Shown: positions 2,264 to 32,000, counted from the first letter of the stretch. The stretch is DNA of 32,000 bases from Candidatus Saccharimonadota bacterium (GCA_965229705.1 OZ245922.1:120001-152000); one strand, 5' to 3'. Translations and numbers: made by a program. The notes: a model not told the origin generated them from the sequence alone.

Positions 2264-3049
2264 ATGGCAGTAACTATGGAGCTCATTAAGGAGTTGAGAC
2301 ACAGAACGGGAATTGGTATGATGGAGTGTAAAAAAGCGCTTATAGAAACAAACGGAGATATTGATACGGCAATTGAACAACTACGAAAGAAGGGGCTCGC
2401 AAAAGCAGCAAAAAAAGCTGATAGAGAAGCTCTTGAGTGAGGAATCAGGATTATTTCACAGTGAGGTAAAGCCTATGTTGTTTCTGTTTCGTGTGAAACA
2501 GATTTCCTCGCAAACTCTGAAAAGTTTCAGGCAATGCTTGATGTAATTGCTCATCATCTGAAAGAAAATGGTGCTGACTCAAGAGAGAGTGCCCAAAAAC
2601 TTATAGAGTCTGACTACGCTCTTGAGATGGGAGAAAATCTGAGAGTAAAGGACTATGAGATTTTAGAAGGGGGAGTTATCTCAGATTATGTTCACTCAAA
2701 CCGAAAACTTGCAGCGGTGGTTATTGCTGATGCTGGAGGAGATGAGGGGAAAATGAAACAGGTAGCAATGCACGTGACGGCGGCAAGTCCTGAGTATCTT
2801 TCTCCTGATGAGATACATGATGACATTGTAGAAAAAGAAAAACAGATTCAACTTGAGATGATGAAAAATGATCCAAAAATGTGAAATAAGACAGATGATG
2901 TACTTCTCAAGATTATTGAATGAAAGATGGGGAAGTTTCGTTCAGAGATTTCTTTGCTTGAGCAAGACTTTGTTGTGGATCCAAGTCAGAAGGTTAAGAA
3001 TTTTCTTGGTTCTACGACGCTTACGAGTTTTAGAAGGTATAGTATATAA
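2264..3049 (+). CDS. tsf: translation elongation factor Ts
   Basis: ATG at 2264, TAA at 3047-3049. The N-terminal UBA-like region ([38 protein letters not shown]) and the C-terminal IEGKMGKF...LLEQDFV match EF-Ts. TGA falls at conserved Gly (for example 2921-2923, aligning with EGRM of E. coli EF-Ts). Confidence 0.93.
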
Positions 3050-3066
3050 GTTGTAAGAAACTCTAG

Positions 3067-3932
3067 GGTTGTTTACACTTTTGGATAATCTGTACAGCAG
3101 AATATTTTAGAAGTTAAACATAAAGGAAATGAATATACATAAACGAACAAGGCTCACTGAAATGCAAAGAAAAGATATATGGGAGAAATATAAAAATGGT
3201 ACAAGGGTGAGTAGCCTCTCAGAAATATATCTCACTTCCCGAGTCACGATATACAAAGTACTTTCTCGAGCTCGCAGACAAGAATTTAGACCAAGAAATT
3301 CTACAAATCATAAATACAGAACTCTTGAATGGTGACTCAAAAGATTGTGAAAGATAGAAAGAAAGATAGTTGAGAAGAAAAATAGAGAGGCTCAGAGATA
3401 CAATAAAACATATCCTGGAGAAATGCTTCATGTAGATACTAAAAGACTTCCTCCAATAGTTTGAGATGTAGATAAAACACCAGAATACTTATTTGTAGGA
3501 GTAGATGACTATAGCAGAGAGGCATATGTATCAATACACAAAGATAAGAGTCAGTATTCTTCATCTATGTTTCTCAAACAAATACTTGATGAATGCCCCT
3601 ATGTGATTGAGAAGGTATATTCAGATAACGGAAAAGAATACAAATGAAGTAGTGAACATGAATTTGTGAAAGTTTGCGAAGAGCATGGAATTACTCAGGG
3701 ATTCACACGAGTAAAAAGACCACAAACAAATGGTAAAGCTGAGAGATTTATACGAACTGTAATGGAGATGTGGCATAAAAAATACCAATTTACTACCCGT
3801 AAAGAAAGGAGAATATCTTTAAAAAGATTTGTAAATTGGTATAATACGGTTAAGCCTCATAAAGGTATTGAAAACATGACACCTTATGAACTTATTGAAC
3901 AATTTTATTATCCTGAAAAAGTGTAAATAACG
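3067..3932 (+). mobile_element. IS481-family insertion sequence (about 0.87 kb)
   Basis: Imperfect 16-bp terminal inverted repeats: GGTTGTTTACACTTTT (3067-3082) and AAAAGTGTAAATAACG (3917-3932), 14/16 complementary. They enclose a single DDE transposase gene whose stop codon lies inside the right IR. The flanking hexamers CTCTAG (3061-3066) and CTCTAA (3933-3938) look like a 6-bp target duplication of the CTAG-containing kind reported for IS481. Confidence 0.75.
3129..3926 (+). CDS. IS481-family DDE transposase (rve integrase core)
   Basis: One 265-aa frame when the four in-frame TGAs (3333-3335, 3348-3350, 3462-3464, 3645-3647) are read as Gly. It has an N-terminal HTH and DDE-region motifs HVDTKRL, GVDDYSREAY, SDNGKEY and RPQTNGKAERFIRT. 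Confidence 0.88.
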
Positions 3933-3997
3933 CTCTAAGATTTAACATATAAGTTTTCATCTTTCTCTCTTTTATGGAGGGAGAGATGAGTTTTTAG

Positions 3998-4237: not shown

Positions 4238-4268
4238 CAAAAAAGAGCTCTCCTATAAGGAAAACTCT
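4238..4268 (-). terminator. possible terminator downstream of tRNA-Cys
   Basis: On the minus strand there is an imperfect hairpin AGAGTTTTCC-TTAT-AGGAGAGCTCT followed by T6. Confidence 0.4.
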
Positions 4269-4314
4269 GGTTATTCTTGCCTAAAATTAGTACAAAAACA
4301 CGATTTTTCAAACT

Positions 4315-4388
4315 TGGAGGCACCGCCCGGAGTCGAACCGGGCTACAGGGCTTTGCAGGCCCCTGCATAACCGCTCTGCCACGGCGCC
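4315..4388 (-). tRNA. trnC: tRNA-Cys (anticodon GCA)
   Basis: The reverse complement folds as a 74-nt cloverleaf: acceptor GGCGCCG/CGGTGCC, anticodon loop CTGCAAA, T arm CCCGG-TTCGACT-CCGGG, discriminator U73 (a Cys identity element), encoded CCA. Confidence 0.93.
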
Positions 4389-4478
4389 AAAGAACACGCG
4401 CGAATTATATAAATTCTCATCACATTCGCAAACCATTTTACGCTTTACTGAAGAAATTTTTTGTTTCTCAGAGGTTTC

Positions 4479-5033
4479 CTAATTCTTGCAAGAAAAAGTT
4501 GAAAAAATATTTCTATAACGATCGTAGTTCTCCTGTATATCTCCAATAGAAATATTCATATAGTATACCCTTTCTCCACAAGATTTTACCGTTTGTAGAT
4601 AAGTTACATACGGCGTTGTATTATTGTATTTTCAGTGAAACTCTAGTACCTTTGATGTATCACCATCAGGAAACTCAAGCGGAAAAATATTTTTTTTGTG
4701 AAACACTTCCAAAGTACTATCAAGATATGATGGGAGTTTCTCAAATAAGACTTCACTGCTCTCTGAGAGAACATTCTTCTCAGAAATAATAACGATATTA
4801 TTCGCATATCATCATCTTAACTCACTCCCGCTATAAGCAAGTTCCACACGCCCTATCTTTGGACTAGGAAGAGTATCTCACGATACCTCTGACCAATTTT
4901 CAGGAAGAGAAAGAGAAAAAAGCTCATGAGAAACACTTCTCAGTCACTCTCCTTGAGACCCTCCTCACCAAAAGCACGAACTGAGAAAAAGTATGATACA
5001 GAGGAGCACAAAGTATTTCATCATAAAAAACAT
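4479..5033 (-). CDS. lipoprotein, unknown function
   Basis: 184-aa frame open with TGA=Gly (ATG 5033, TAG 4479-4481). The N-terminus MFFMMKYFVLLCIILFLSSC is a signal peptide with a lipobox (LSSC). The start lies 1 nt after the stop of the upstream gene. Confidence 0.7.
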
Positions 5034-5034
5034 A

Positions 5035-5358
5035 TTAAACAAAAAGAGCATATAAAAAGATGGCTGTTATCACAAACCAAAAAAAGCAAATAACTCATAC
5101 ACACCACCATGAAAATATTTTTTTCAAAACATAGGTGCTAAAGCTTATAAGAAACATTCAAAAACTCACAATCAGAGCAATATACGATGGCAAAAGGAGG
5201 TATAATAAGAACTCTTCAAACAGTCCCGCAGAAATACTCAAATATATCCCAAAAAAACAAAGCGCACTCAGCAAAAAAAGATGCTTTGCTGAAATAAACA
5301 CAAACTTCATATAAGCACTGGTATCTTTTTGTATCATATGCGTAAATTTTTGAAACAT
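5035..5358 (-). CDS. small integral membrane protein, unknown function
   Basis: The listed ORF 5158-5358 continues through TGA codons to TAA 5035-5037. The 107-aa product is almost entirely hydrophobic helices. Confidence 0.6.
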
Positions 5359-10172: not shown

Positions 10173-10297
10173 AGCATACACTCATATAAATATATCTTTA
10201 TATAGCGTATCCTATTTACAAAAAGAACTCAATAAGTGAGCTATTGTGGAAGAAAAAAAAGTCTTGATGTTTTTTTGTTTTATTTTTTACACATCTT

Positions 10298-10448
10298 CCT
10301 AAGGAAGCACGGAAAAATAGGAAGTGCGTAAAAACAAGTAGTTCAAGGAAAAATCAACTTGGCTGAAATAAGCGTACTCTATTGTACGAGTTTGAAGACG
10401 ATGTTGGATTTTGAAGATGAAATACGAAGTCTTTCCGCATTTCCCTAA
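10298..10448 (-). repeat. MITE-like palindromic element, type 1, copy A
   Basis: About 150 bp. Its reverse complement aligns along its full length with copies B (27741-27890) and C (29567-29712). The termini are imperfect inverted repeats (TTAGGGAAATGCGGAAA ... TTTTTCCGTGCTTCCTTAGG). Two core blocks, AGTACGCTTATTTCAG(C/T)CAAGTT and CTTGAACTACTTGTTTTTAC, are identical or nearly so in all three copies. Confidence 0.8.
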
Positions 10449-12463
10449 CGCGACTGGAGGCGAAAAGGGGTATTGTCAGGAAGAAAATCTCCACGAATAT
10501 GGCTCATACATTTAATAATATTATTATGCCAGTTAAAGTCGCTCGAAGCATAAATAGGTTTTGATGCGTCCTTGTTTCCATAGCGAGAAAGCTGATCAAT
10601 AGTATTATACTGAGAAAGATACTTGTTATTAAAAGTCTTTGTCATCCAGTGAACTCCCTGTCGAGCATTACTAAAAGTATAGGTTGATCCAGAATCAGTA
10701 TTTCCCACATTTCCCACATTAAACGCTGTCTTTAAGTGCTTTCCCAGTCAAGTTTCTGCAAGACCTACACACATCATAAAAGTAGGATCAACATTTGCAG
10801 CAATAGACTCCTCAACCCATATATTCCAGTCACGAAAAGCTCAAACAGCATAAATATTAAGAAGATACTTCTGCCTCTCTACCTCTGTGTCTCACTGTAT
10901 ACAAAATACTCCCCTCGCACACTCATCTTCAGAAGACCTATGCTCATATCATTTTCGTGAACGAAAGTCAGAAGCAAATTTAAACTGGTATTTTTCAGGA
11001 AGCTTACTATATGTCAGATACGAGAGATCCAAAAACCTCAGAGGATCAACATATTCTCCATCTTGATATACAACAAAGTGCAGATGAGGTCATGAAGTCA
11101 AAACTCAAGCTCAGGGAGTCCCATATTCTCATCATGACTCTGCAAAAACTTCTCCCTGCTTTACAAAATCATACTGCCTCACAAAACTCTTACTTACATG
11201 CCCATATAGTGTAACGAGTCAACCACTATGCTTGAGCGCAATATAAGAATATCCCGTATCAACAGGAGGTTCTATATAAATCACATATCCGTCCATTGCT
11301 GCCTGGACACTGGTTCACTGAGGAATGATAATATCTATCGCATCATGATCAGCTCAAAAACGCTCTTGATATCATCTATCATTGAAATAGGCAGAAATAC
11401 CAAGATATGGAGGTACTGGCCAGGAGAAAGGATTGTTTCCAGGAGTATCTTCTGTCAGTCTTGATTCAGCAAATATGATTTTATTGATTCATAAACACTT
11501 CTCTGAAATACCTATCAGATCAGCGTCTGTTGCAACTCATAAATCTACAAAATCACAATTATGCTCTGATAAGAGCTTTCTTTTGGTGTTATTGACTTTT
11601 ATTCTTTCACGAAGCTCTTTAATCTTGATATCTTTCTCTTCTTCAAGTTTTTCATCTATATATTTTTTATATAATTGTTCTTGTCACTTTGTTGCATCTA
11701 AGAGTCTTTGTTTTGCTGCTTTTTTGTCATCAAGGATATTTTTTTCAAGTATTCCACGCTTTCTCAGAACTCTGAGTTCTTGCTCATCTTTGGATAACTC
11801 GAGTTTTTTGATATACAACTCTGAGATATAGTTTCGGTGTTTTATAATCAGTTGTTCTCCTGTAAGCTTCACGATACTCGTAAAGTAGAGGTCATTAACC
11901 AACTCATCAATATTTTCTCCTGACAGCAAAATAGATTTAAAATTATCTATATCATCTCCTGAGCTGACACTTCTGCCTTTTTTGTACAAGTATATAATAT
12001 ACTGCTCTATGATATTACTATTTTCTGATATTTTATTCTTGAGGAGATCCACAGTTTGTTCATTTACCTCTATCTTTTTCTTGGTTTCTATAATTCTATC
12101 ATTTATGAGATCAATCTCTCATACCAGACGAGATATATCCGCCTGCAGGTCAACTAATGCTCACTCAAGAGAGCTAATCCTACTCTCGAGCTTTTGATTT
12201 TGCGCTTCAAGATATTCTCTTTTACCACTTACCTTTTCTCACAAAGCTCAATAGAGAGAGAGTCTTTCATAATTTGAAAAAATATTTCTATCATTTTCAT
12301 CAAAGTCAAAATCACTACTCTCAAAAATCATTTTCTTCTCTTGCGCTTTATACAGTTCAATGATATTTCCTGACTGCTGAGAGGTGAGGGCAAAAGCCTG
12401 TACAAAAAATAACATTCATACAAAAGCGAGGAAAAATACTTTATAGTTCTTTCTTTTATTCAT
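10445..12463 (-). CDS. peptidoglycan hydrolase: coiled-coil + M23/LytM endopeptidase + glucosaminidase-like C-terminal domain
   Basis: 672-aa frame (ATG 12463, TAG 10445-10447) open with TGA=Gly. It has a signal/TM segment, an EnvC-like coiled coil and M23 motifs HDAIDI, GYSYIALKHSGGLVTLYGHVS and TSGPHLHFVVY (that Gly is TGA 11090-11092). The C-terminal CVGLAETGLGK...FNVGNVGN region resembles a muramidase/glucosaminidase domain. Confidence 0.88.
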
Positions 12464-12842: not shown

Positions 12843-12870
12843 AGTAAAAATAATTTATGGAAAAGAAATC

Positions 12871-12895
12871 CTATTTTTCCCTACTTCCTTAGGAG
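12871..12895 (+). repeat. solo terminus (remnant) of the type 1 MITE-like element
   Basis: CTATTTTTCCCTACTTCCTTAGGAG closely matches the right terminus of copy A (CTATTTTTCCGTGCTTCCTTAGGAAG). It contains the stop codon of the YmdB-like gene (12881-12883). Confidence 0.45.
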
Positions 12896-14882: not shown

Positions 14883-15052
14883 ATGCGGAAAAACTTGGTA
14901 TTTCCTTAAGGAAACTCTGAGAAAGTCCTTTTTGTTTTCTCGAGACCGGTCTCGAGTTACTTATTTCAAGGACTTGAGACCAGTCTCTTACGCAAGATTT
15001 TTCTATTTTTCAGAGTTTTCTTAGTATATTTCCTATTTTTCCGTGTTTGCAT
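14883..15052 (+). repeat. nested MITE-like repeat: type 2 element (14906-15024) inside a short type 1-like element
   Basis: The outer arms ATGCGGAAAAACTTGGTATTTCC and TATATTTCCTATTTTTCCGTGTTTGC match the type 1 termini. The inner element has termini CTTAAGGAAACTCTGAGAAA / TTTTTCAGAGTTTTCTTAG like the 27899-28006 copy. Its interior carries a perfect 18-bp palindrome, CTCGAGACCGGTCTCGAG (14939-14956). Confidence 0.7.
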
Positions 15053-18056: not shown

Positions 18057-18467
18057 CTACGACTTTTTATATTCAATGTGTATTTTTCGACAGTTTTCTC
18101 ATACTTTCTCTAGGAAAATACTTATATCACTCTCTACATGTCTTTCTAGCAGACTCGGCCACTCTATGAGAATAATACCGGTGTTATTATCTATTATTTC
18201 TTCTCATCATATAGACACAAACTCTTCGTAGTTTTCGAGTCTATATAAGTCAAAGTGATGAAATATATACGCATCATTTTTATAGATATTATAATAGGTA
18301 TATGTTGGTGAAGGGATATTTTCTAGCTCTGGAAAATATCTCCTGATAATCTCTCATGCAATTGTGGTTTTTCCCGCACCTAAATCTCAATGTAGAAAGA
18401 TAACAGACGGCATATGTATATTGAGAGTTATATTTGATATATCTTCTAAAGTATAGCTATACTGCAT
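18057..18467 (-). CDS. tsaE: tRNA t6A37 biosynthesis ATPase TsaE (YjeE)
   Basis: 136 aa. Motifs are P-loop LHGDLGAGKTT (first Gly is TGA 18387-18389), SPTYTYYNIY, HFDLYRL and IILIEWP. Confidence 0.88.
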
Positions 18468-18908: not shown

Positions 18909-18927
18909 TATTGTTTGCAGAGTTTCC

Positions 18928-20049
18928 TTAATCATAAATATCTTCTGAATAAGAAGAATGAAACACTATATCGTGTAGGTTTTTTTCAAAATGTTCAAGT
19001 GAGAATTTGTGAGCTTGCTCCCTACAATTCTCTGAGAGCTTGCTACATCGATCTTCAGAAAGATATGTTACTCATGAAACAATATCTTCTACACATATAT
19101 TTTTGGGGGTAAGATATCAAGTTTTTTTATGAATAATCGTTTCTTTGAGTCCGCCATCATTTACTCATAGGACAGGCTTTCAGGCTGACATAGACTCTAC
19201 AGGACTCATTCAAAAATCTTCATCAAGAGGGATATAAATGCTTGCTCGGCAGCATGCTATATACTCATACAGATCATTGTTATCATCAAGAGTTATGCAG
19301 CGTATATTTTTGTAGCCTTGAGCAAGAGAAATAACCATATCTTTTTGAGGATCGTTTTTTCCATAAATTACGATCAATTCTTCATTTGGAAGTTTCTGAA
19401 ATGCTCTGACAACCATATCAACTCTTTTTGCGTCTGCCAGTCGGGCAAAACTTAAGAAGTATCCTTTACTCGATTTGTGATAAAACTTTTGCATATCAAC
19501 AGGAGGATACAGAACTCTTGCCTCATATCATAGATATTTCTGTATTCTTTTTTGTGTATTCATAGAGTTTGTAAGAATTATATCTATTTTTGATATATCA
19601 TACTTATACGCTAATCGAAAAATATAACAAAAAAAGAGAAAAAAAGGTTTGAGATAGAAAGGAACTTTTTTGAGATATAATTCGTGTAAATCATATAAAT
19701 ATCTCGGTGGAGTATGACAATAATAAATTTTTTTTGTTCCTTCAGGACAATTTCTCACGGCTGATAAACTATCACCACTAAATATAATAGTATGATATTC
19801 TCTAATAAATTTCGCATGGAAAAAAAATGCCCATTTGAGTTTTATATGGCGAAAACCTTTTGTGAAAACCTCTGAAGATACCGTGATCATTTTTCAACAA
19901 AAACCTTCTTTACGAAGGTCAAAACTTCCTGGACTAAAAAATCATGATGCAATATCAGCATTCAGTGACTTTCACATCATGATAATAAGTCGTTCTCCTC
20001 ATCATTTATAGAGAAAAGTATCATGAAATACGAGAATTTTTTTATTCAT
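18928..20049 (-). CDS. glycosyltransferase, GT4 (GT-B) family
   Basis: 373 aa (ATG 20049, TAA 18928-18930). The N-terminus reads LYKGGGERL (two TGA=Gly) and the C-terminal EX7E-type region reads [29 protein letters not shown]. Confidence 0.85.
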
Positions 20050-27055: not shown

Positions 27056-27727
27056 ATGCATATAGTTATTATTGATGATGAGGTGTTGCTCTCTCATGCT
27101 ATGAAGAAAAAACTCGATCAGCAATGATATAGTGTGAGTATTGCTCACTCTCTTTCAGAGTATAGAAATACACCATTTTGAAAAGTAGATTTGTATCTTG
27201 TGGATATTACCCTTGGTGATGGAAGCGGTTTTGAAATCATTCGTAGTATTCGAAAAGATGGAAAAGAAAAAAATATCCCCATACTTATTATTTCAGGTCA
27301 TGATGATACAAAAAGAAAACTTGTTGGGTTTGATATAGGAGCCGATGACTACCTCGTAAAACCCTTTGACCCTCAAGAGCTCATTGCCCGAGTGAGGAAA
27401 AGGATTCAAGATAAAAAATATCATGAACACATAGACCCTATTCTTCGTTATAGAGATATTGCTTTTGATAGGAGTAAGAGGCTCGTCTATAAGTGAAATA
27501 ATAGAGTGTCTTTATCAAAGAAGGAAAAAAATATTCTGGAACATTTTATGATTCGTACTTGAGAACTCGTAAGTAAAGATGAGCTTGCAGATACTTTTTG
27601 GAAAAATGATAACCCGTTCACTATTATAGAAAATACGATTACTGTCACTATATGTAATCTTCGAAGAAAGCTTGGAAGGGATTTTGATCTTGAAACTGTT
27701 CGGAGTGAATGATATATCTTGAGATAA
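27056..27727 (+). CDS. response regulator, OmpR/PhoB family (no adjacent kinase on its own strand)
   Basis: 223 aa. Motifs are MHIVIIDDE, LYLVDITLGDGSG, ADDYLVKPF and wHTH ITVTICNLRRKLG...VRSEGYIL. Confidence 0.88.
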
Positions 27728-27740
27728 AGAGGATTCATTT

Positions 27741-27890
27741 CCTAAGGAAACGCGGAAAAACTTCGTATTTCATCGTCAAAGTGCAACATTGTCTTCAAAC
27801 TCGTACAATGAGTACGCTTATTTCAGCCAAGTTGCATTTTTCTTGAACTACTTGTTTTTACACATTCCTTATTTTTCTGTGCTTCCCTAA
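27741..27890 (+). repeat. MITE-like palindromic element, type 1, copy B
   Basis: Aligns over its full length with copy C and with the reverse complement of copy A. It starts 14 nt after the regulator stop codon. Confidence 0.8.
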
Positions 27891-27898
27891 CTGTTCAT

Positions 27899-28006
27899 TT
27901 AAGGAACCCCTGAGAAACTCCTTTTTTCTTTCCTTTTTCAAAGGAGAGGTGGCTCGATAGAGCCAGAGAGGATTAGAAACTTTTTGTTTTTCAGAGAGTC
28001 CTTAAG
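27899..28006 (+). repeat. MITE-like element, type 2
   Basis: Termini TTAAGGAACCCCTGAGAAA / TTTTTCAGAGAGTCCTTAAG are inverted repeats and match the termini of the element at 14906-15024. The interior differs and contains the GGCTC-GATA-GAGCC hairpin. It lies 8 nt from type 1 copy B. Confidence 0.65.
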
Positions 28007-28449: not shown

Positions 28450-29570
28450 GAGAAAGACATGAAGTGATTATTGTTTGAGCTGGAGCAGCTGGTATCTGAG
28501 TAGCTCTCAAGCTCAAGGAACTCGGAGTAGATTATCTAGTACTCGAATGAGATGAGGTAGCTTCGAGTTTTAACAAGTGGAGTAATGAAACACATTTTAT
28601 TTCTCCAAGTTTTCCGAGTAATGCTTTTGGTCAAGTAGATCTCAATGCAATTCATCCAGAAACTTCTCCTGGATATATGTTTGGAAAAGAACATGTCAGC
28701 GGTCAAGAATATGCGAAGTATGTGAAAAGTGTGGTACAAGCTTTTGATGTTCTCGTATATGAAAATGAAAAAGTACAAAGAGTAGAGAAGCAGGAGGATA
28801 TATTTGTAGTTTACACAGACAAACAAGCATATGCATGCATATATGTTATTTCTGCTATTTGAGAGTTTCAATTTCCATCAAGCTCAGATATTAGAGGTTC
28901 TGAAAATGCAATTCATAGCTCGACAATACGAGATTTTACAGATTACAAGACAATCAGAGATGTTTTGCCAATTATTGGTTGATATGAGAGCGCGGTGGAT
29001 ACTGCATATGCTCTCTGTAAACATTGAAAGCAGGTACATATATTTTGTTCTCATAATATGGATGAGATGAGTACTTCTGATCCTTCACAAGTCCTCTCAC
29101 TCTACTCACTACAAAGACTTAGAGAAATGCAGGAAAATCCCAGAGTGATTTTTACGCAAGACCCTATAATTGAGATCACAAAGAAAGAGAGAGAATATAT
29201 AATTATTTGAAAGAGTTGAAAGAAATATGTTTTTTTTGAGATGCCTATACTTGCAACAGGGTTTCGACCACCCTATGATTTTCTGTGAGAATATATCAGT
29301 TTTCGAGATCATGATCATATGCCAGAATTAAATGAGGTAGATGAACTCAAAAAAACAAAAAATATTTTTGTAGTAGGAGCGCAAGTTCGACAAGGAGAAC
29401 TGATTTTCTGTTTCGTATACAAATACCGACTGAGGTTTTGAGTTGTAGCTCTTGAGATAGCAAAAAGACTCGGAAAAGAGAAGGATTTTGAGTCTTATAA
29501 AAGATTATGGGAAAAACAATGATTTTATCTTGATGATCTTTGAGCTTGTTGAGATGAATGTATGTGTTAG
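28434..29570 (+). CDS. FAD/NAD(P)-dependent oxidoreductase (class B flavoprotein monooxygenase-like, Pyr_redox_3 type)
   Basis: 378 aa. The FAD dinucleotide fold is VIIVGAGAAGIGVALKL (TGA=Gly within GxGxxG). A second Rossmann motif reads PIIGGYESAVDTA, followed by LATGFRP and the VVGAQV...FCFVYKYRLRF motif. The C-terminus GACGDECMC ends in the TAG located in the first bases of repeat copy C. Confidence 0.82.
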
Positions 29571-29712
29571 GGAAATACGAAAAAATTTTGTATTTTATCG
29601 TCAAAATCCAATATTGTCTTCAAATTCGCATGATCAGTACGCTTATTTCAGTCAAGTTAGTTTTTCCTTGAACTACTTGTTTTTACAGATTCCCCATTTT
29701 CCTATGTTTCCT
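29567..29712 (+). repeat. MITE-like palindromic element, type 1, copy C
   Basis: Aligns over its full length with copy B. Its first bases TTAGGGAAATACG include the stop codon of the upstream oxidoreductase gene. Confidence 0.8.
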
Positions 29713-29797: not shown

Positions 29798-30427
29798 ATG
29801 CTTACAGAAAAACAGCAACATGCCCTAGATGTTATCACAGATTTTGTAGCTCGATATGGGAAATCTCCTACGATTGAAGAGCTCAAAAATCTCCTCCATC
29901 AAAAATCGAAGCGTTGAGTAACACAGTATTTGGAAGTACTTGAAAAAAAGGGATTTATCTCTCGAGGAGAATGATATAGAGGCATTCATCTGGGGAACAC
30001 TATAGGAATGCAGACAACACTCAATATTCCTATTCTCGGATACGCAAACGCCGGTACGCCACTAGCAGTTGCTGAGAGTAATGACTATGGAACACTCCCT
30101 ATCTCAAAAAATATTATCGGAGAAAATTCAGGAGAATACTTTGTACTACGAGTTTCATGAACAAGTATGAATGAGTGTGAAGTATCAGGGAAAAAGCTCG
30201 AAAATGGGAGTTATGTTTTGATTAAGAAAGATGAACGAGTACTCAATGAGAGAGATCCTTTTTTGTTTATCGTAAACGGATGAGCGACTCTCAAGCGTTA
30301 TAAGAAAAATGCATGACAAGTGTACCTTCTTCCACAGTCAAATGAAGACCATCATACTCCTATTATCCTCTCAGAATCTGATGAAGTATATCCAAGTGGA
30401 AAGGTTGTAGATGTGTTTCACTTTTAG
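29798..30427 (+). CDS. lexA: LexA repressor (S24 self-cleaving peptidase)
   Basis: 209 aa. The N-terminal wHTH reads LTEKQQHALDVI...PTIEELKNLL...GVTQYLEVLEKKGFI. The cleavage-region/peptidase motifs are LRVSGTSMNE (Gly is TGA) and VNGGATLKRY. Confidence 0.9.
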
Positions 30428-30467
30428 GGAAAAAGAAAAAACTTTGATTTTTGGCTAAAAACGATAT

Positions 30468-30690
30468 AGTGAAGCCTACGAAAGGCGTTTGAGTCTCGCT
30501 GACACGGGACGAGCTAGAGGAAGAACCCCCTCTCTATACATAGTGATTACTAGGGATAGTAGAACCTCTCGGAGTCGAAATACTTCGTCAAAAAAATACA
30601 ATTGAGTATCGTTTTTGGTGGCACCTTCATACCGTGTAATATTCTCGGATGACCAAAAGCACATGAATATTTTTCGTGTGTTTTTTATAT
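30468..30690 (+). promoter_or_regulatory. T-box riboswitch-like leader of aspS (with its terminator)
   Basis: A promoter-like TTGATT...TATAGT lies at 30444-30470. A Stem I distal-like motif, ATAGTGATTACTAGGGATAGTAGAACC (30540-30566), closely resembles the remembered glyQ T-box AUAGUGAAAGCUAGAGGAUAGUAACC. A T-box-like TGGTGGCACC (30616-30625) carries UGGC, which could pair with a GCCA 3' end. An 8-bp terminator hairpin plus T6 lies at 30660-30686, and TTCAT(ACC)GTG (30626-30636) can alternatively pair with its 5' arm. It sits immediately upstream of an aminoacyl-tRNA synthetase gene. Confidence 0.6.
30660..30686 (+). terminator. intrinsic terminator (expression platform of the aspS leader)
   Basis: CACATGAA-TATTT-TTCGTGTG (8 bp including one G-U) followed by TTTTTT, 24 nt before the aspS ATG. 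Confidence 0.65.
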
Positions 30691-30709
30691 ATAGAGTAAC
30701 ACTATTTTT

Positions 30710-32000
30710 ATGCATAGAAGTCATAACTGTAATCAACTTACAGCAAAAAATATTTGAGAGCAAGTCATGCTTGCTTGATGGGTGAGTAACCGTCGAGATC
30801 ATGGAGGAATTATTTTTATAGATCTCAGAGATCGTTATGGTCTGACACAAGTGGTGTTTGACCCAGAAGATGATACGGCGTCTTGGGAACTCGCAGACAG
30901 TTTGAGATCAGAATATGTGATCAAGATTCAAGGAACAGTGAGGTCTCGACCAGACGGTCAGAATAACCCAAATATGTTTACGGGAGAAATAGAAGTCATT
31001 GTTTCACAGATAGAGCTTTTATCAAAATCAAAAACTCCTCCTTTTGAACTAGATGAACATGCTACCGAGGCAAAAGAAGATCTCAGACTCAAATATCGCT
31101 ATCTTGACATGAGAAGAAAGAAAATACACGACTTTATTGCCTTTCGTTCAGAGATGACGCACTATACACGAAACTGGTTTATACAGCGAGGCTTTTATGA
31201 TGTACAGACCCCTATTCTTGCAAACTCTTCTCCTGAGTGAGCGAGAGATTTTCTGGTACCGAGTCGGTTGAATCCGGGAACATTTTATGCGCTTCCTCAA
31301 GCACCTCAACAATTTAAGCAACTTCTTATGGTGTGAGGAATAGATAAATATTTTCAGATTGCTCCATGTTTTCGAGATGAAGACCCGCGAGCTGATAGAC
31401 ATGCCGGAGATTTTTATCAAGTGGATTGTGAAATGAGTTTTGTAGAACAGTCAGATATATTTGATGTGGTAGAGTCGTATATTCTCGATATAACACAAGA
31501 ACTCTCATCTCAAGAGATTCTTTCTGAAACTCCGTGAAAAGATACTCTCAGAGAAGGAGGAAAATTTTTTCTCCTTACTCATGAAGCAGCAATTGAAAAA
31601 TATGGTTCAGATAAACCAGATCTCCGCTATGGTATGGAACTCATGGATGTAGATGATATATTTGCTCGTAGTTCCAATGAGATATTCTCATCAATTGCTA
31701 CTGATAAGAAGAAAAATAGGATTAAAGCATTGAAAGTCTCAGGATGAGACACGGTATTTTCCAAAACACAGATGAAATGATTTGAGAGTTATGTGCGTCA
31801 GTTTGGAGCTCAATGACTTGGATATTTTCAGATGAAGGAGGATGGGCTGAAAGGACCACTTAATAAGTTTTTTGAAGAAAAAGATCTCAAAGAAATTGTT
31901 GAGAGAACAGAGCTTGAATTAGGAGATGTGATATTTTTTGGAGCAGGGGAAAGAGAACTTGTATGTCATTATATGGGAAAATTTCGAATATATCTTGCGG
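30710..32000 (+). CDS. aspS: aspartyl-tRNA synthetase (3' end outside the window)
   Basis: [52 protein letters not shown] aligns residue by residue with the E. coli AspRS N-terminus. Class II motifs are [19 protein letters not shown] and [14 protein letters not shown] falls at conserved Gly (30776-30778 in GWV, 31238-31240 in PEGARDF). Confidence 0.95.

Follow-up and report, generated by a model that had tools for sequence, protein, structure and literature searches.

Two related families of short palindromic elements, A and B, are scattered over the window, by which we mean the whole 32,000-nucleotide stretch of DNA analyzed here. We consider it probable (roughly 0.7) that both are non-autonomous terminal-inverted-repeat transposons (MITEs) mobilized by an IS5-family DDE transposase, most likely of the IS5 group. 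Elements of this kind are known, and their placement is explainable by a YTAR target that overlaps stop codons: such a target preference, a set of two stops (TAA and TAG) and tight packing of the genes would together bring selfish DNA to rest precisely on stops. For Gracilibacteria and other candidate phyla with small genomes, descriptions of mobile elements are few, and our search of the literature on them found nothing relevant. Repeats of the two families can mislead gene-end calls and mark most TAG stops of the window, and they are candidate 3′-end structures for the transcriptomes of these uncultured bacteria.

Genetic code and origin of the window

With TGA read as a stop, the longest open reading frame in the window has 263 codons; with TGA read as sense, frames reach up to 717 codons and the coding share is 87%. 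The OmpR-type response regulator attains the end typical of its family (...TVRSEGYILR) only with TGA as glycine. The genetic code of the window is code 25 (TGA = Gly), with TAA and TAG as the sole stops. All gene ends were called under this code, the 27 complete genes of the window forming our sample; standard-code gene calling fragments every gene of the window. For relatives of the flavoprotein gene, public gene calls break off at an in-frame TGA that is itself conserved (372 aa vs. 395 aa), which suggests that they were made with the wrong code. The aspartyl-tRNA synthetase (AspRS) of the window found its matches in a protein search among Candidatus Gracilibacteria MAGs, with a top identity of 82%, and on such sequence grounds the window is part of a Candidatus Gracilibacteria genome.

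Copies and anatomy of family A

The window holds three full-length copies of family A:

10299-10448 (body 10303-10444), minus strand: family A copy 1, GGAAATGCGG...CCGTGCTTCC, flanks TTAG/TTAG in the minus-strand reading
27742-27890 (body 27746-27886), plus strand: family A copy 2, GGAAACGCGG...CTGTGCTTCC, flanks CTAA/CTAA
29567-29715 (body 29571-29711), plus strand: family A copy 3, GGAAATACGA...TATGTTTCC, flanks TTAG/TTTT

As the first-pass annotation had reported, these copies, of ~141 bp each, align end to end (nhmmer E 1e-45 to 1e-50). They lie on both strands, and their flanks are unrelated, with no alignment beyond 4 bp. In pairwise BLAST they are 85-89% identical over 113-142 nt; over the full 165-column alignment the identity is 76-80%. 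Each copy had been placed directly downstream of a coding sequence. This is literally so for copies 1 and 3, which start in a stop codon: in copy 1 the left TTAG (10445-10448) spans the TAG that ends the M23 peptidase gene (10445-12463), and in copy 3 it spans the TAG (29568-29570) that ends the flavoprotein gene. Copy 2, on the other hand, begins 14 nt past the stop of the OmpR-type response regulator, a TAA at 27725-27727. Copy 3 is the most decayed, its right repeat being eroded to TTTT.

The element proper runs from GGAA to TTCC, with imperfect inverted ends, and its whole body forms a long imperfect palindrome. An earlier terminal consensus, TAAGGAA...CGGAAAAA, had these inverted ends right but included a terminal TAA/TAG that belongs to the target-site duplication. 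The left terminal repeat reads GGAAATGCGGAAA..., and the reverse complement of the right end reads GGAAGCACGGAAA... or GGAAGTGCGTAAA.... The right end carries two tandem versions of the repeat, and of these it is the inner one with which the left end is paired in the consensus fold. Two internal blocks had been described as identical or nearly so in all copies; they are invariant in the three window copies, but a fourth copy, from a relative (see below), has substitutions in both. With ~75% of the columns invariant among three copies, unbroken runs of 16-20 exceed chance only weakly by a rough estimate.

The earlier statement that no protein is encoded also held: none of the family A copies contains an open reading frame initiated at a start codon. 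On the sense strand, the target repeat's own stop shuts its frame, while two frames stay open across the copy. A translated copy used as a query against 1.84 billion representative proteins gave one match, which was repetitive and spurious, and Rfam covariance models run against the window gave none at gathering scores, only chance-level miRNA matches (E ≥ 0.07). The copies are short, dispersed and non-coding, with unrelated flanks, terminal inverted repeats and target-site duplications, and the description of family A as MITE-like, palindromic and terminally inverted-repeated is borne out.

Family B, end fragments, and solo termini

A search of the window for the terminus motif returned 19 matches vs. 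1.3 expected. Among the elements absent from the earlier annotation is family B, related to A, with a body of ~100-110 nt of the form GGAAxCxCTGAGAAA...TTTTTCAGAGxxTCC. The copies of family B and the isolated ends are as follows:

27899-28005, plus strand: family B copy 1 (B1), 99-nt body GGAACCCCTGAGAAAC...TTTTTCAGAGAGTCC, flanks TTAA/TTAA, 8 nt after family A copy 2
14906-15024, plus strand: family B copy 2 (B2), 111-nt body, flanks TTAA/TTAG, nested between A-like end fragments
14883-14905, plus strand: A-like left-end fragment, ATGCGGAAAAACTTGGTATTTCC, back to back with B2
15025-15050, plus strand: A-like right-end fragment, TATATTTCCTATTTTTCCGTGTTTGC
12869-12894, minus strand: solo terminus like the A right end, CTAA GGAAGTAGGGAAAAATAGGA on the minus strand
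30424-30454, plus strand: probable decayed A left end, TTAG GGAAAAAGAAAAAACTTTGATTTTTGG, on the LexA stop codon
10279-10298, minus strand: probable remnant of an older terminus, GAAGATGTGTAAAAAATAAA, abutting copy 1 at its right end in back-to-back arrangement, with a shared TTAG between them
18913-18931, minus strand: solo B-like terminus, TTAA GGAAACTCTGCAAAC, containing the TAA stop (18928-18930) of a glycosyltransferase gene
4462-4482, minus strand: solo B-like terminus, TTAG GAAACCTCTGAGAAAC, containing the TAG stop of gene 4479-5051
4255-4272, plus strand: B-like terminus, TAAGGAAAACTCTGG, across tRNA-Cys from terminus 4462-4482

These additions modify the picture of a family always abutting the 3′ end of a gene. 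The composite at 14883-15050 occupies the spacer between two divergent gene starts, where there is no 3′ end, and that generalization fails there. The terminus at 12869-12894 encodes the final Arg-Lys codons and the TAG stop (12881-12883) of a YmdB-like gene, relative to which it is oriented opposite to the full copies, and the terminus at 18913-18931 makes up the entire 19-bp spacer between two convergent genes. Termini stand back to back across a shared YTAR at three junctions (copy 1 right, copy 2 left, and B2 left), which indicates that new copies tend to insert beside older ends.

A tRNA-Cys(GCA) gene (4315-4388, minus strand) is bracketed by two inverted B-like termini at 4255-4482. The arrangement could represent a passenger-carrying element or two independent stumps. 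The idea that the bracketed gene is a UGA-decoding tRNA-Gly was rejected, the gene being tRNA-Cys.

Target-site duplication and likeness to IS5

The direct repeats that flank the elements are copy-specific and all fit YTAR: TTAG/TTAG in copy 1, CTAA/CTAA in copy 2, TTAA/TTAA in B1, and TTAA/TTAG in B2. Decayed flanks are seen in copy 3 (TTAG/TTTT) and in the copy from the relative (TTAG/TTAC). Copies 1 and 2 show the flanks to be repeated directly; were they inverted, TTAG on one side would face CTAA on the other. They are therefore derived from the target and lie outside the terminal inverted repeat. IS5 duplicates a 4-bp target with the motif 5′-YTAR-3′ (PMC5009759), and ISfinder counts for the 4-bp YTAR duplication of IS5 are quoted in PMC5493358.

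In annotated sequence, an E. coli IS5 copy starts with GGAAGGTGCGAATAAG after CTAG and ends with ...CTTGTTCGCACCTTCC. Of the ends of copy 1, the inner right one, GGAAGTGCGTAAAAAC, agrees with the IS5 repeat at 13/16 positions with two 1-nt gaps, and when single-base gaps are allowed the left one, GGAAATGCGGAAAGAC, and the inner right one have 12-13/16 positions in common with IS5; this likeness spans only ~12-16 nt and is too short for firm statistics. The match to the IS5-type repeat (GGAAGGTGCGAA...) is weaker for the outer right end of family A and for family B. Neither the window nor ~800 kb of other loci (~320 kb of them Gracilibacteria) yielded an IS5-family transposase, and tblastn with the E. 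coli IS5 query gave nothing below E = 4. The same loci yielded neither a longer element bearing A- or B-type ends nor a transposase gene flanked by such termini, for which the first-pass annotation had proposed a search. The window encodes a single transposase, an IS481-like protein with an rve domain; the ends of its element are unrelated to those of A and B, in agreement with the earlier remark that the termini do not resemble the IS481 inverted repeats (3065-3082 and 3917-3934).

A duplication of 3 bp (TTA/TAA) with a 1-nt wobble at the tip of the element fits as well. It would account for TAA in element-free relatives vs. TAG at occupied stops, and both the end of the relative's copy (TTA GGAAAG) and the end at 4479 (TTA GGAAAC) fit a 3-bp TTA duplication and a G-initial element. 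Copy 2 and B1 fit the reading with a pre-existing 4-bp target. Landing on pre-existing TTAG only and a 3-bp TTA duplication that turns TAA into TAG are both within the behavior of the IS5 superfamily.

Association with stop codons

GGAA directly follows the stop codon at 5/27 stops, compared with 0.9% of all TAR triplets (P = 4e-6). When sites are classed by position, a terminus occupies 5/8 of the stop-codon YTAR sites and 3/37 of the other non-coding ones (about 37 sites; Fisher P = 0.002), and for TTAG/CTAA sites alone the occupancy is 4/5 at stops vs. 1/19 elsewhere in non-coding sequence (P = 0.002). In substance, this upholds the proposal that insertion sites are selected at gene ends. 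In the census of the 27 genes, A-TAA ends 17/27 and a pyrimidine precedes the stop in only 8. A terminus is found in or at 5/6 TAG stops, the exception being gene 18057-18467, and all four T-TAG stops of the window carry one, leaving none free.

We propose that the transposase would cut YTAR with a 4-nt stagger and duplicate the target. With TAA and TAG as the only stops, each stop preceded by a pyrimidine would be a target, and the duplication would rebuild an in-frame stop, such that the protein would stay unaltered and the element would become the first segment of the 3′ UTR. Within genes, insertions at YTAR would be lost, since two of the three sense frames stay open across the element; out-of-frame ones in gene tails would add ~49 residues and presumably be purged. 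Insertions in promoters and leaders would likewise be lost in this 87%-coding genome, and surviving copies would accumulate on stop codons and beside older termini. The excess at stop codons over other intergenic YTAR sites would, we infer, most simply reflect purifying selection in a tightly packed genome.

Two genes allow a comparison with relatives. The unusual tail of the flavoprotein (...GDECMC*, pattern ...DEC-x-C*) has the same end codon in the element-free relatives L002, L086/L087, and L088, among whose tails are ...SKYIC*, ...GDECIC*, and ...ECQC*. That of LexA (...DVF-x-F*) has it in eight relatives (L004, which carries an element there, L005, L007, L011, L013, L021, L022, and L024). 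The stops of both genes are therefore ancestral. The stops occupied by family A are all T-TAG, whereas element-free relatives have T-TAA at both comparable stops, and element-free relatives of LexA have an ordinary hairpin-plus-T terminator after the stop.

A copy in a relative and distribution of family A

A fourth copy of family A is found in a Gracilibacteria MAG contig (CALDZK010000001.1, L004:7316-7464) and is 64-69% identical to the window copies. By AspRS, this MAG is the closest to the window. Its copy starts in the TAG stop of LexA and has the same orientation; the LexA stop thus carries a full copy in the MAG and a stump in the window (30424-30454). The full copies of family A known to us number four, three in the window and one in the relative, and identities of 64-89% among them indicate that the family is old.

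Profiles built from three and from four copies and searched with nhmmer against ~320 kb of Gracilibacteria loci and other contigs detected only the copy in L004, and the exact motif had no match in any relative locus compared, all with the same code, and is absent from L002. As copy and motif are missing from the other Gracilibacteria loci (about 300 kb), the family is lineage-restricted and not a general feature of code 25. Exact scans with the invariant 20-mer CTTGAACTACTTGTTTTTAC gave 0 matches in the genome contig collection and 1 unrelated high-GC match in metagenome contigs, and a 23-mer internal block had 0 matches among viral contigs. A de novo scan of relatives for YTAR-flanked inverted repeats returned only low-complexity noise. 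Relatives sampled by way of the IS481-like transposase provided one 11-kb Logan locus, in which the IS is present and the MITE absent.

Secondary structure and candidate role at gene 3′ ends

Compared with shuffled sequences, three of the four full copies fold clearly more stably, with z of -2.0 to -5.1 on either strand, and copy 3 is marginal (z -1.0 to -1.4). In 4/4 copies, the left end and the inner right repeat form a sense-strand hairpin, after which comes a conserved U-tract like UAUUUUUC; the antisense strand has no U-tract. At the sequence level, a stable hairpin with an adjoining U-tract on the sense strand, the hallmark of a rho-independent terminator, is found in all four copies, and a simple terminator scanner also flags the apical hairpin CGTAC...GTACG. 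The sense transcript is predicted to fold into a ~125-nt hairpin and U-tract that could act as an intrinsic terminator or reinforce one, and such terminator-like use may explain the shared orientation of the full-length copies.

Between the copy in the relative and the window copies, 8/38 pairs are compensatory, a number reached in 0/500 shuffles and compared with 0-2 in slid controls, and G-U and A-C mismatches, at 8:5 on the sense strand, give no clear strand bias. In the relative, both arms have changed together (GAAAGTATATAAAAAC on each), as have interior positions, and the interior compensatory changes come almost all from this one sequence. Terminal repeats would co-vary in any case, since one transposase has to bind at both ends; the interior pairs hint at a constraint beyond the decay of a dead transposon. 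As to orientation, the same relative orientation reported earlier is seen in 4/4 full copies, the one in the relative included, but a bias is not established (P = 0.125), nor is it when two remnants are added, the sense-oriented one at LexA and the one at YmdB that faces the other way (5/6, P = 0.22); the caution already voiced that the bias could be due to chance was justified.

Alternative explanations

On top of a transposon origin, the element may have been co-opted as a 3′-end module, a terminator or stabilizing hairpin with palindrome and orientation under selection, a refinement that we regard as possible but doubtful. The same end faces the upstream stop in all four full copies, the sense hairpin (z from -1.4 in copy 3 to -5.1) has its U-tract in every copy and in the sense direction only, and the compensatory pairs exceed all shuffles. 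From the stop of the flavoprotein to the promoter of LexA, moreover, copy 3 is the only candidate for a terminator, and the opposite-facing termini at 12869-12894 and 10279-10298 are both decayed stumps. Against these points, the orientation count is not significant, the mismatches give no clear strand-specific RNA signal on the sense strand, covariation of the ends is expected from the fit to the transposase anyway, the compensatory changes stem mostly from the relative, and the relative's element is itself followed by an ordinary terminator. A stronger version, which we think rather unlikely, would tie the elements to amber stops: the family would home near-saturatingly to TTAG stops, or duplicate TTA and add its own G, rewriting ochre to amber, and the sense hairpin and U-tract would be kept as a terminator. 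If true, this would be a domesticated, stop-codon-coupled 3′-end cassette in a recoded, streamlined genome.

Other accounts replace the IS5-type origin itself. The families could be IS630/Tc1-mariner-type MITEs, like Correia, RUP, and ERIC, that duplicate only TA and whose starting purine rebuilds TAA or TAG; TA does precede every terminus, and among the bacterial MITEs described so far no pattern is more common than a TA duplication (PMC2229807). The terminal inverted-repeat bases would then mismatch in copy 1 (G/A) and copy 2 (A/G), and four flank identities beyond TA would be a coincidence with a rough joint probability estimated at ~0.004. In B1, as in copies 1 and 2, the direct repeats reach 4 bp, by which a TA-only duplication was rejected, and over their short match the ends look like the IS5 repeat and not like IS630-type repeats, leaving this origin improbable. 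Still less credible is an immobile structured RNA gene or cis-regulatory 3′ motif whose termini are a stop-codon context signal of a recoded organism. The strong link between stop codons and TA(A/G)GGAA and the conservation of interior and palindrome would agree with it, but the flanking direct repeats differ between copies, copies are nested or back to back, solo ends occur, one copy lies between divergent promoters, and Rfam has no match. Despite the same code, the motif is absent from L002 and unmatched in the relative loci, where the same genes end without it, and a universal stop-context signal of code-25 bacteria was rejected on the ground that relatives lack the motif. The first-pass annotation had itself raised a local segmental duplication confined to the window as the case against a mobile family; the three window copies do lie within 20 kb, but flanks unrelated beyond 4 bp, copies on both strands and the copy in another genome refute it, and its probability is negligible.

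Comparison with known elements

Under the favored reading as IS5-type MITEs, the nearest comparison is IS5 of E. coli and the IS5 group, with which these elements would have in common a 4-bp YTAR duplication and ends starting GGAAG.TGCG. IS5 differs in being 1.2 kb long with its own DDE transposase, whereas the elements described here have 100-141 bp, are non-coding and are palindromic throughout. The targets of family A have so far been TTAG/CTAA only, with neither TTAA nor CTAG, unlike the YTAR range of IS5. MITEs derived from the IS5 family have been described as BrickBuilt, MITE293, and MITE700 in Porphyromonas gingivalis and as ATR in Neisseria meningitidis (PMC4596501). Like A and B, these are short, non-autonomous and intergenic, with IS5-family-like terminal repeats and predicted stem-loops (PMC4596501). 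None of them has a sequence relationship to A or B. In the P. gingivalis elements the duplications are variable or absent, and a tie to stop codons is not reported. In eukaryotes, the Tourist-type MITEs of the PIF/Harbinger relatives of IS5 are small, palindromic and non-autonomous, have a TTA/TAA-based duplication and often lie in untranslated gene ends. They differ in their eukaryotic hosts and 3-bp duplication, and we liken them to A and B by description alone.

Correia/NEMIS, ERIC, and RUP are palindromic bacterial MITEs of ~100-150 bp that are co-transcribed with their neighbors; ERIC has an orientation-dependent effect on mRNA stability, and RUP inserts at TA, its mobilization being attributed to an IS630-type transposase (PMC2229807). 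They differ from A and B in having other ends, and in A and B it is the stop codon that is duplicated as target. The duplication of Correia and ERIC is likewise one of TA.

Other features of the window

The IS481-like element is compact, ~908 bp (3046-3953), with an rve-domain transposase and inverted repeats of ~18 nt (3065-3082 and 3917-3934), and ends ~45 nt short of tRNA-Trp. At L085:9634-10531 (Logan contig, SRR30247007) there is a copy that is 85.5% identical in nucleotides, and the protein relatives of the transposase include one from Candidatus Absconditicoccus praedator.

In the genome collection, the best non-Gracilibacteria matches of the AspRS gene (30710-32000) are all from Campylobacterota (Arcobacteraceae, Campylobacter, and Sulfurovum; 54-58% identity), and an old gene transfer may lie behind this likeness. 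The gene is preceded by a conserved leader of ~250 nt (30440-30709), which had no match in Rfam even at E ≤ 1 and occupies the same position in seven relatives (L004, L005, L007, L008, L009, L011, and L012). It comprises a promoter-like TTGCATTT...TATACAAT, two blocks that are conserved (GCTAGAGGAAGAAC and AGTAGAACCTCTCGGAGTC), the sequence AGGTGGCACC, which resembles a T-box, and a terminator hairpin followed by a T-run, and from these parts it looks like a divergent T-box leader.
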